Shown here in pieces: positions 33,593 to 35,234 of a DNA stretch of 64,000 bases. Source of the stretch: an uncultured delta proteobacterium. Its GTDB lineage: Bacteria > Desulfobacterota > Desulfobaccia > Desulfobaccales > 0-14-0-80-60-11. The position numbers and the translations under genes are program-made. Numbering within the stretch: the stretch's first letter is position 1; the number at the start of each line of letters is the position of its first letter. The notes beneath the pieces are model-generated. The model ran no database searches and had not been told where the DNA came from. It worked only from the letters and a program-made list of their open reading frames with translations. The stretch lies in NCBI GenBank assembly GCA_963812015.1, contig CAWETI010000002.1:832001-896000 (forward strand). Reading direction: 5' to 3'.

Positions 33593-33987
33593 GAGATGAA
33601 TTTCTATTAATTCTCCTTGCTTGGCGGGTCGATAAGTATGATAATCGGCCCGAATGATTGGGCTTCACGGAGAGCCGAGAGATCGCCGCCTGCTGATTGA
33701 AGACCTCTAAACTCCAACTCCAAGAAGATTTCCGTCATGTCGATGTCAACATCGCTCTTGGGCACTCTGGTGCTGATGTTATTGCTGACGCAGGTGGCCG
33801 ACGCCTGCACCAGTTTGCGGGTCATGACCGGGGCCGGTGACCCGGCCGGGGAGTAGGGTTGGTCACCAGGCTGGAAGCCGATTTGGGCTGCAAGGTGGGC
33901 AGTTATGCATCAGGGCGAAAAATTGATTAACTGTGGAGCCTTCCTTTAATTCCCCTCTCCCTTGAGGGAGAGCGACTGTGTTAGATG

Positions 33988-34941
33988 TCAAGGGTTAACT
34001 GGTGCAAGGGGGCACCAGGGTTGCTGTTGTTTAAGTATGGCATTAAGGATGGTTAACAGTTTACGCATACAGGCGGTAAGAGCCAATTTCTTGCTCTTAC
34101 CCATTGCCAGCAACCGGAGATAGAAGGCACGGATGGCCGGATTGACCCGGCAGGCGGCCAACGTAGCCATATACAAGGGAGGCCGCACCCGGGCCCGGCC
34201 ACCCCAAACGGTGCGCTTGCCCCGCATCTGACCGCTATCGCGGTTAAAGGGGGCCAACCCCACCAGGGCGGCGATCTTCTTGCGATTTAAGGTGCCTAAC
34301 TCCGGCACCCAGGCTAACAGGCTTTGGGAGGTTAAGGGGCCGACTCCCGGGACGCTCTGGAGGAGTTGATCCTTCTCCAGCCAGATGGGGCTTTGACGGA
34401 TGAAGTCGTCCAAATCTTGCTCCAACTCCTTAAGTTGTTCTTTAAGGGATTGGAGGTTGGTTTGCAGGCTTCTGCGGACCCGTGGGGAGAAAGTCATGGA
34501 TAGGCGATTTTTCTCCATGACCAGCATCTCCACCAGTTGCCGGCGCCGGCTCATGAGGGCGGCCAATTCCTGTTGATGCTCATCTGGCCAGGGTCGGAGG
34601 GACGGTTTCAGCGCCTCGGCAAAATGAGCCAGAACCGCGGCGTCGATCTTATCGGTTTTGGCCAATCTGCCGGAGGACCGGGCAAAGTCTCGCACCTGAC
34701 GAGGGTTAATAATGTGGGCCGGCAGGTCAGCCTGCCGCAAGGCGGCGGCGGCCAGGATCTCATAGCCACCGGTGGCTTCCAGGAGGATGAGCTGGGGCTT
34801 AAGGGACAAAAGTCGGACAACGAGGGCCTGGATACCGGAGTCGTTGTTGGACTCCCGGAACCGGACCTCTCCTGGCCGGATGGCGATGTCTAACTGGTCC
34901 TTAGAGACGTCAATGCCGACAAATACGGATTCAGGGTGCAT
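33988..34941 (-). CDS. IS110 family recombinase (DEDD RuvC-like domain + Tnp domain with catalytic Ser)
   Basis: [46 protein letters not shown]; start at MHPESVF after GGAGG. Confidence 0.96.
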
Positions 34942-34949
34942 AAAAAGCC

Positions 34950-35115
34950 TTGGCCTCCCGTCCTTGCAAGATACGGGCTTCAAAGCCCGGGCGACTGTTC
35001 GGGTTAATGCCAGGGCGACGTGGCGGCCACGCTCTCACCGCGGTCTTGAAGGACCAAGGGTTAGGACGGCCTGCCACGCCGCCATCAGGAGCAGTACTGC
35101 TCCTGATGGCCTGGT
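34950..35115 (-). ncRNA. Bridge RNA of the IS110 element (boundaries approximate)
   Basis: 5' perfect 30-nt palindrome (35081-35110); target guides CCUAACCCU (35057-65) and GAGAG (35032-36); donor guides ACAGUCGCC (34990-98) and UGCAAG (34963-68). Confidence 0.85.
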
Positions 35116-35234
35116 TCTTTAATGACCAAACTATGTACCGGTTCCCTTTAACATACAAGGGTCAGGGTGAGGGTGAAAGTTAATCTATTTTACGCCCCCA
35201 GCAATAAGTGCAGTTATCCACAAGGAGGAACATT

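Follow-up and report, generated by a model that had tools for sequence, protein, structure and literature searches.

The stretch analysed here (the window) comprises 64,000 nt from an uncultured delta proteobacterium (GenBank assembly GCA_963812015.1, contig CAWETI010000002.1, positions 832,001 to 896,000) and carries on its minus strand an insertion sequence (IS) with a recombinase open reading frame (ORF) of 317 residues, running from an ATG at 34941 to a TGA stop at 33990-33988. The encoded protein contains a DEDD_Tnp_IS110 domain (PF01548, residues 8-148, 2.8e-25) and a Transposase_20 domain (PF02371, residues 192-274, 2.4e-18), passes the NCBIfam model NF033542, 'IS110 family RNA-guided transposase' (235.8 bits, cut-off 140), and among solved structures matches those of ISCro4 (9t56, 1e-37, aligned over residues 2-309) and IS621 (8wt6, 8.8e-37, 130 bits, residues 4-309) and no others. 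Residues D11, E55, D97, D100 and S236-G237 align opposite the DEDD motif and S241-G242 of IS621, whose catalytic roles are given in the IS621 structure paper (PMC11208158). The protein thus has the N-terminal DEDD RuvC-like domain and the C-terminal Tnp domain with a catalytic serine that are expected of the IS110 group. The element is very probably an active or recently active IS110-group insertion sequence with the architecture of IS621, in which a non-coding bridge RNA from the left end pairs with target DNA as well as donor DNA.

The layout of the element agrees with this assignment. A preliminary description of the locus had noted an intact IS110 recombinase with about 220 bp of non-coding DNA upstream and 15 bp downstream; we measure 216 nt from the left end (35157) to the ATG and 15 nt from the stop codon to the right end (33973). 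A 4-bp sub-terminal inverted repeat (TAAC, 33983-33980; GTTA, 35152-35149) surrounds the donor, completing the long left end, short right end and short sub-terminal repeat typical of the IS110 group, for which short repeats around the donor have been reported (PMC11208160; PMC11208158). The junctions read CCTGACC-CT|TGTAT (35166-35153) and ACAGTCG|CT-CTCCC (33979-33966) on the minus strand, exactly as they had been described. All features are listed in Table 1.

Table 1. Coordinates of the insertion sequence, its recombinase gene, the predicted bridge RNA and the target sites in the window.
Feature	Position	Strand	Basis or remark
Insertion sequence proper, 1185 bp between flanking CTs (1187 bp with one CT)	33973..35157	-	Eight copies with the same ends; homology stops there
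Left target CCTGACC + CT core, left flank	35158..35166	-	Guide match 6/7 + core
CT core + right target = interrupted chromosomal hairpin CTCTCCC-TCAA-GGGAGAG	33955..33972	-	Read from sequence
Left donor ACAGTCG = element right end	33973..33979	-	Read from sequence
Right donor TGTAT = element left end	35153..35157	-	Read from sequence
Recombinase gene, 317 aa	33988..34941	-	D11, E55, D97, D100, S236-G237
TTGACA, -35 half, overlapping stop codon 33990-33988	33986..33991	-	Read from sequence
TATGTT, -10 half	35150..35155	-	Read from sequence; position conserved in relatives
Bridge-RNA 5' stem-loop, 30 nt, 13-bp perfect stem, 4-nt loop	35081..35110	-	Predicted fold
Target-binding loop module: outer stem, internal loop, distal hairpin	35017..35080	-	Fold and covariation in relatives
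Left target guide CCUAACC + CU (CCUAACCCU)	35057..35065	-	7/7 at three full copies and the remnant
Right target guide GGUGAGAG, including GAGAG (35036-32)	35032..35039	-	GAGAG pairs top strand CT-CTC; may extend to CTCTCNCC
Target-loop handshake CG	35030..35031	-	Complementary to donor positions 7, 6 (G, C), not target position 7
Donor-binding loop module	34946..35016	-	Fold; helices 89-92% paired in relatives
Left donor guide ACAGUCGC	34991..34998	-	Element's last 7 nt + first core base
Right donor guide UGCAAG	34963..34968	-	Pairs circle-junction CT-TGTA; one G.T at donor position 12
Donor-loop handshake GA	34961..34962	-	G pairs target position 7 (C)
U5 run right after donor-module outer stem, just before ATG	34942..34946	-	Likely RNA 3' end (predicted)
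Unoccupied target motif CCTGACC-CT-CTC in intact hairpin repeat	21127..21138	+	G000:C2:853127
Second unoccupied target motif in intact hairpin repeat	63137..63148	-	G000:C2:895148, minus strand

We searched the genome from which the window derives (3.96 Mb, 6 contigs) for copies of the element and for its target repeats. Eight full copies are present, each exactly 1185 bp long from TGTATG... to ...ACAGTCG, differing at five variable positions altogether, none of which falls within a guide segment, and all eight retain the intact 317-aa ORF. A CT lies directly outside both ends in every copy, and empty sites hold one CT; because left target, single CT and right target are contiguous in the unoccupied sites, the boundaries of the element are fixed and the core is seen to be single before insertion. 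All eight insertion sites fit NC(T/A)(A/G)ACC-CT-C(T/C)(C/T). Their left flanks are CCTAACC (3), CCTGACC (3, the window copy among them), ACTAACC (1) and CCAAACC (1), and their right flanks start with CTC (6), CTT (1) or CCT (1), so that the prediction of the preliminary description, that other copies would sit at a site of the CCT(A/G)ACC-CT-CTC type, was borne out throughout the genome. A ninth, decayed copy at G000:C2:1263944 keeps the left flank CCTAACC-CT and the first 56 nt of the left end. This solo left-end fragment (G000:C2:1263935-1264000, L009 1501-1566), which lies outside the window, breaks off at a CATCAGG microhomology, continuing into flanking DNA, and adjoins a 66-aa C-terminal remnant of a repetitive extragenic palindrome (REP)-associated tyrosine transposase (NF047646, 57 bits, profile positions 108-146).

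The left flanks of this fragment and of the full copy at C2:909804 are paralogous, with ~89% identity, which could be taken to mean that the copies are inert relics, or that they spread through duplication of flanking DNA instead of transposition. These paralogous flanks are, however, far more diverged than the element they adjoin, the remaining flanks are unrelated beyond the short repeat, and neither the small number of variable positions nor the intact ORFs and guides are what relics would be expected to show. We therefore consider this explanation very unlikely; eight near-identical copies indicate instead that the element is probably active.

Folding of the minus strand upstream of the gene, a check suggested with the first reading of the locus, gives a minimum free energy of -94.5 kcal/mol for the 216-nt left end (z = -4.4; none of 200 shuffles was as stable), and the resulting structure consists of a 5' hairpin, two stem/internal-loop modules and then U5 and the ATG. 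The perfect 30-nt hairpin reported earlier is recovered in this fold, and the segments previously assigned to a target loop (CCUAACCCU and GAGAG) and to a donor loop (ACAGUCGCC and UGCAAG) are indeed present, each pair sitting on the 5' and 3' sides of one of the two internal loops. The left guides have the sequence of the DNA top strand and the right guides that of its complement, and each side includes the core, which is the arrangement reported for IS621, where left guides pair the bottom strand and right guides the top strand with the core in each pairing (PMC11208160; PMC11208158).

The agreement between guides and DNA extends to single positions. What had been described as an 8/9 match of the target guide proves to be a 6/7 match to the left target of the window copy (G for A at position 4) plus the core; across the genome the left target matches the guide at 7/7 positions in three full copies, as it does in the decayed one, and at 6/7 in the other five. 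The first three bases of the right target match the guide at 3/3 positions in six copies, 2/3 in one and 1/3 in one. The guides themselves are identical in all eight copies, and no copy at a G-variant site has a G-variant guide. The polymorphic position (A/G) coincides with the one at which the natural target of IS621 is reported to form a non-canonical pair, G53 with tT11* (PMC11208158; PMC11208160). The donor guide had likewise been credited with an 8/9 match, over the segment ACAGUCGCC (34998-90), and its ninth letter does mismatch; it is not expected to pair, because the left donor guide of IS621 pairs over 8 nt only (PMC11208158; PMC11208160). The single G.T in the right donor guide has a counterpart in the non-canonical G161 with dT12 of IS621 (PMC11208158; PMC11208160). 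Finally, C 35031 in the target loop complements donor G7 and not target C7, while G 34962 in the donor loop complements target C7 and not donor G7, matching the handshake guides of IS621, which lie 3' of the core-binding bases and pair position 7 of the other DNA (PMC11208158; PMC11208160).

Such matches rarely arise by chance in DNA of this composition. When the mononucleotides of the left end were shuffled 5000 times, 3 shuffles contained the consensus left target plus core exactly (9/9), 22 contained the left donor at 8/8, and none contained both; in the real left end the left-target and left-donor guide matches are the longest sense matches found. A search of the left end against Rfam 15 returned no family at threshold, the best matches being to unrelated families with E = 0.3-5; one of these weak matches, isrK-like, shows a stem followed by a U-run.

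The ends of the element also supply what may be a promoter. Once a single CT links the two ends, a 17-nt spacer separates the right-end TTGACA from the TATGTT that follows it in the left end, which by motif alone constitutes a sigma-70-type promoter at the circle junction, and no sigma-70-like site was found in the linear arrangement of the element. In 31 of 40 distinct junctions of relatives (see below), TTGA[CT] lies 21 nt before the core end; one further junction has it shifted by 1 nt, and the other 8 have a degenerate form of it or none. For IS621, excision is reported to restore a promoter whose -35 lies in the right end (PMC11208160; PMC11208158), and integrated copies are reported to express the RNA only weakly. 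The transcription start, an RNA length of ~200 nt and termination at the U-run (34942-34946) are predictions from these sequence features. Among the sequencing runs recorded for window positions 33900-35250 there was no RNA run, the single entry being a metagenomic run of uncertain kind with a share of 0.05.

Relatives were obtained from a scan of species-representative genomes, which yielded 80 loci with proteins 47-61% identical, most of them in metagenome-assembled genomes (delta proteobacterium/Desulfobaccales, Chloroflexota, Planctomycetota, cyanobacteria and others). From 10 sequences and a structure that we specified, we built a covariance model, R1, that covers the two modules alone; 77 of these loci match it over its full length immediately upstream of the gene, the exceptions being L035, L050 (15 nt of upstream DNA only) and L080. 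Over 58 distinct rows of the resulting alignment, pairing is seen in 87.2% of cells, whereas sliding the partners by 1-3 columns leaves 35-44% paired; the covariation score reaches 0.558 as against at most 0.132, and double changes occur at 25 of the 31 pairs; none of 500 shuffles reached the observed values. The outer helix of the target module stands out, with 96.7% of cells paired and double changes at all 12 pairs. The fold of the window copy and the R1 matches thus describe a structured RNA with a 5' stem-loop and two internal-loop modules, of which the modules alone were modelled in relatives. A ninth R1 match in the home genome (G000:C2:999080-999197, 30.6 bits, E 4e-4) was set aside as probably spurious, as no IS110-like ORF was recognized near it by eye: the sole ORF of at least 150 aa in the surrounding 2.3 kb encodes 337 aa without the look of an IS110 transposase.

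If the RNA directs insertion, its guides should vary between relatives in step with the flanking DNA. We placed the ends of relatives' elements from conserved donor motifs alone, without use of the target guides, and compared guides and flanks in one representative of each of 36 guide classes. For the left target guide, compared with the 7 bases that precede the core, 175 of 252 positions match (87.3 +/- 7.7 in permuted pairings); for the right target guide, compared with the 5 bases that follow the core, 130 of 180 do (51.0 +/- 6.7). Neither value was reached in 10,000 permutations. In 33 of the 36 classes the handshake base of the donor loop pairs target position 7 (22.8 +/- 1.9 by permutation, again 0/10,000), and in only 6 does it pair position 7 of its own donor, as a handshake with the other DNA requires. 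A subgroup of relatives (L052-L059, L070, L085, L086, L089 and L095) has a left junction ...GTCAT-T|AGTATG and a right junction still reading CT; the left guides of this subgroup end in UU rather than CU, its donor-loop handshake U pairs A at target position 7, and its two core copies seem to differ, TT on the left and CT on the right.

This covariation bears directly on the possibility that the upstream region is a mere 5' untranslated leader or attenuator, with specificity encoded by the protein and the guide matches arising as by-products of the element's ends and of a repeated target. The U-run that follows the last stem just before the ATG is attenuator-like and fits that idea. A leader would not, however, be expected to track flanks and handshake positions over 36 classes as no permutation did, and the match of the left guide to the target cannot derive from the element's own ends; the family has, moreover, been experimentally shown to be RNA-guided (PMC11208160; PMC11208158). 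We give the leader explanation almost no credence, and regard the element as a real bridge-RNA recombinase, a typical member of the IS110 group with a target specificity of its own.

The bridge-RNA interpretation must nonetheless be tempered by several observations that weigh against it. Some concern the home genome: the window copy and four others carry one mismatch to the left target guide, the right target deviates in two copies, and there is no hairpin at the insertion site C3:812637. Others concern the RNA model, as no Rfam family matched, the RNA was assigned through a home-made model, the alignment of relatives (A2) was fitted to that model and is biased toward its structure, and in the donor module only 63% of the cells of the outermost helix are paired. 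In relatives, the first one or two left-target positions are often mismatched. The placement of ends is a further source of uncertainty: a strict rule, which required TTGTAT upstream and an exact match to the guide downstream, retained 33 of 77 loci, and the relaxed rule retained 56, dropping 21 with cut flanks or missing motifs and leaving several right ends that are plainly misplaced, although misplaced ends can only have lowered the observed concordance between guides and flanks. Set against these points, the IS621-like bridge-RNA architecture put forward in the preliminary description is upheld by the protein family, the layout, the covariation of the RNA, the orientation of the guides, the CT at eight of eight insertions and the covariation of guides with flanks.

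The targets of the element were also examined as DNA structures. The motif CTCTCCC...GGGAGAG occurs 35 times in the genome over both strands, corresponding to about 17-18 hairpin loci, and 5 occurrences are preceded by the right end of the element. At six of the eight sites the element is inserted into the 5' arm of a GC-rich hairpin, which is of this CTCTCCC..GGGAGAG type at five; at the sixth, C3:326573, the right flank forms a longer hairpin (judged by eye). The genome holds five empty CCTGACC-CT-CTC sites and no empty guide-perfect CCTAACC-CT-CTC site, counts too small for a test. On folding of the DNA, four of the five empty sites form an 11-bp GC-rich stem whose 5' arm comprises positions 6-7 of the left target together with the core and right target; positions 1-5 of the left target fall just outside this stem and are mostly unpaired, except that in two of these four folds three of them pair with bases upstream as a small 3-bp hairpin. 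The remaining site, C3:327876, has a minimum-free-energy fold that pairs the bases differently and leaves positions 4-7 of the left target, along with core and right target, within a hairpin loop. Some of the target repeats lie inside a longer imperfect palindrome of ~90 bp with outer arms TTGCCAAAAGT / ACTTTTGGCAA, which resembles a miniature inverted-repeat element.

The preliminary description had called the target a chromosomal hairpin repeat and had compared the system with IS621, which uses REP targets. The first part stands, given the six insertions in hairpin arms, and 'REP' as a name for the target holds as an analogy only. Three intact REP-associated tyrosine transposase genes (100-198 bits) are found in this genome, at G000:C2:1247995-1248432, C2:547777-548181 and C3:650133-650543, and no target repeat motif occurs within 600 bp of any of them. 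We accordingly rejected REP elements mobilised by such transposases as the nature of the target, and because the repeat does not flank these three genes it is best named a REP-like hairpin repeat.

The prevalence of hairpins among these sites raises the question of whether target choice is made mainly, or additionally, through a DNA hairpin read by the protein, with RNA pairing as one layer, comparable to the 'dual-match' of ISPpu10, for which a target stem-loop is reported as a second specificity determinant (10.64898/2026.03.19.712850). The six insertions in hairpin arms speak for it, as does the position of the core within the GC stem in four of five folds of unoccupied repeats, the loop at C3:327876 being the departure. 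Against it, at least one insertion (C3:812637) has a guide match without a hairpin, the guides of relatives track flanks of very different sequence, and the stem-loop of ISPpu10 is a 5' extension while the hairpin here lies on the right-target side. We judge this alternative unlikely, if less so than the leader and relic explanations.

Selection of the site by the RNA guides remains the preferred reading, and from it and the IS621 precedent we propose the following cycle. Excision would yield a circle in which a single CT connects ACAGTCG of the right end to TGTAT of the left end, and the promoter assembled at this junction from TTGACA, the 17-nt spacer and TATGTT would drive a non-coding RNA of ~200 nt from the left end to the U-run before the ATG. 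This RNA, composed of the 5' hairpin and the two modules, would hold the target with its first module and the circle junction with its second, ACAGUCGC pairing the bottom strand and UGCAAG the top strand with one G.T. A tetramer of the DEDD/Ser recombinase would then cut beside the CT core in both DNAs and exchange strands, assisted by the handshake bases pairing position 7 of the other DNA, so that the element would land between CTs inside the 5' arm of the GC-rich hairpin repeat. Transcription, binding of RNA by protein, circle formation, the chemistry and reprogrammability are here inferred from IS621, and the term 'programmable recombinase', used when the locus was first described, is by the same analogy a candidate designation.

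Of the characterized systems IS621 of Escherichia coli (PMC11208160; PMC11208158) is the closest in logic. The likeness includes a DEDD RuvC-like and a Tnp domain with Ser-Gly, a long left and a short right end, an RNA made of a 5' stem-loop, target loop and donor loop with left guides for the bottom and right guides for the top strand, the CT core, the right donor TGTAT, the G.T at donor position 12, a left donor guide of 8 nt, handshake bases that follow those binding the core, a promoter at the circle junction (here by motif only), a target in a palindromic repeat and non-Watson-Crick pairing at position 4 of the left target. The proteins, by contrast, are distantly related (130 bits, E 8.8e-37), the target is CCTAACC-CT-CTC here and ATCAGGC-CT-AC in IS621, and positions 6-7 of the left donor are CG as opposed to AT. 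The element is also shorter, at 1187 bp against about 1.28 kb for IS621, and its RNA is predicted at ~200 nt against 177 nt. Its target repeats form a small family of about 17-18 loci that lies apart from REP-associated tyrosine transposase genes, and the element, unlike IS621, is known from sequence alone.

Other members of the family resemble it in part. ISCro4 / IS622 (PDB 9t56), reported to have been engineered and tested in human cells (10.1101/2025.05.14.653916), is the best structure match (1e-37, residues 2-309) and shares the family and the two-component logic, but it comes from a different host and is a distant orthologue. ISPpu10 and ISPpu9 of Pseudomonas putida (10.64898/2026.03.19.712850; PMC12288879) are likewise described as multi-copy IS110 elements that all sit in one conserved palindromic intergenic repeat, and the target stem-loop that matters in ISPpu10 (10.64898/2026.03.19.712850) has a putative counterpart here; they differ in their hosts and target sequences, and the hairpin of the present element is on the right-target side. 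Elements of the IS1111 group (seekRNA or bridge RNA in the right end) share the DEDD/Ser recombinase family and RNA-guided site choice, but are reported to have their RNA downstream of the gene and long sub-terminal inverted repeats (PMC11208160; PMC11208158). Membership in that group was rejected for the present element, which has only 15 nt after its stop codon and an inverted repeat of 4 bp.

Elsewhere in the window, adjacent ORFs of 188 aa (ending ...EHQARL) and 824 aa on the minus strand (30251-33304) resemble, by eye, a single molybdopterin subunit of the formate dehydrogenase type, and the in-frame stop between them could be a selenocysteine TGA.

The element is not new in kind, since thousands of such elements have already been described: the founding paper reports that 5,511 pairs of ncRNA and target were analysed and that bridge RNAs were predicted in 85.7% of catalogued IS110 elements (PMC11208160). 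It is a clean further example of the known bridge-RNA recombinases and leaves their mechanism as it was. Its value lies in how completely the logic of IS621 is legible from the DNA, with four guides, both handshakes, the G.T at position 12, the junction promoter and eight insertions beside empty sites, which makes it a good case for teaching and for annotation, and a candidate orthologue to include when recombinases are screened. Because A and G target variants coexist in one genome, it also offers a small, countable natural experiment on the tolerance of a mismatch at left-target position 4. The element appears to have filled the guide-perfect sites of this genome, five one-mismatch CCTGACC sites being empty. 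It is a rather remote prospect that targets are recognized in two layers, by RNA guides and by a GC-rich hairpin with the core in its 5' arm. If that were true, the clade concerned, made up of metagenome-assembled genomes of Desulfobacterota, Chloroflexota and Planctomycetota with proteins 47-61% identical, could be a source of a compact recombinase that is orthogonal to IS621 and carries a built-in structural safety gate.

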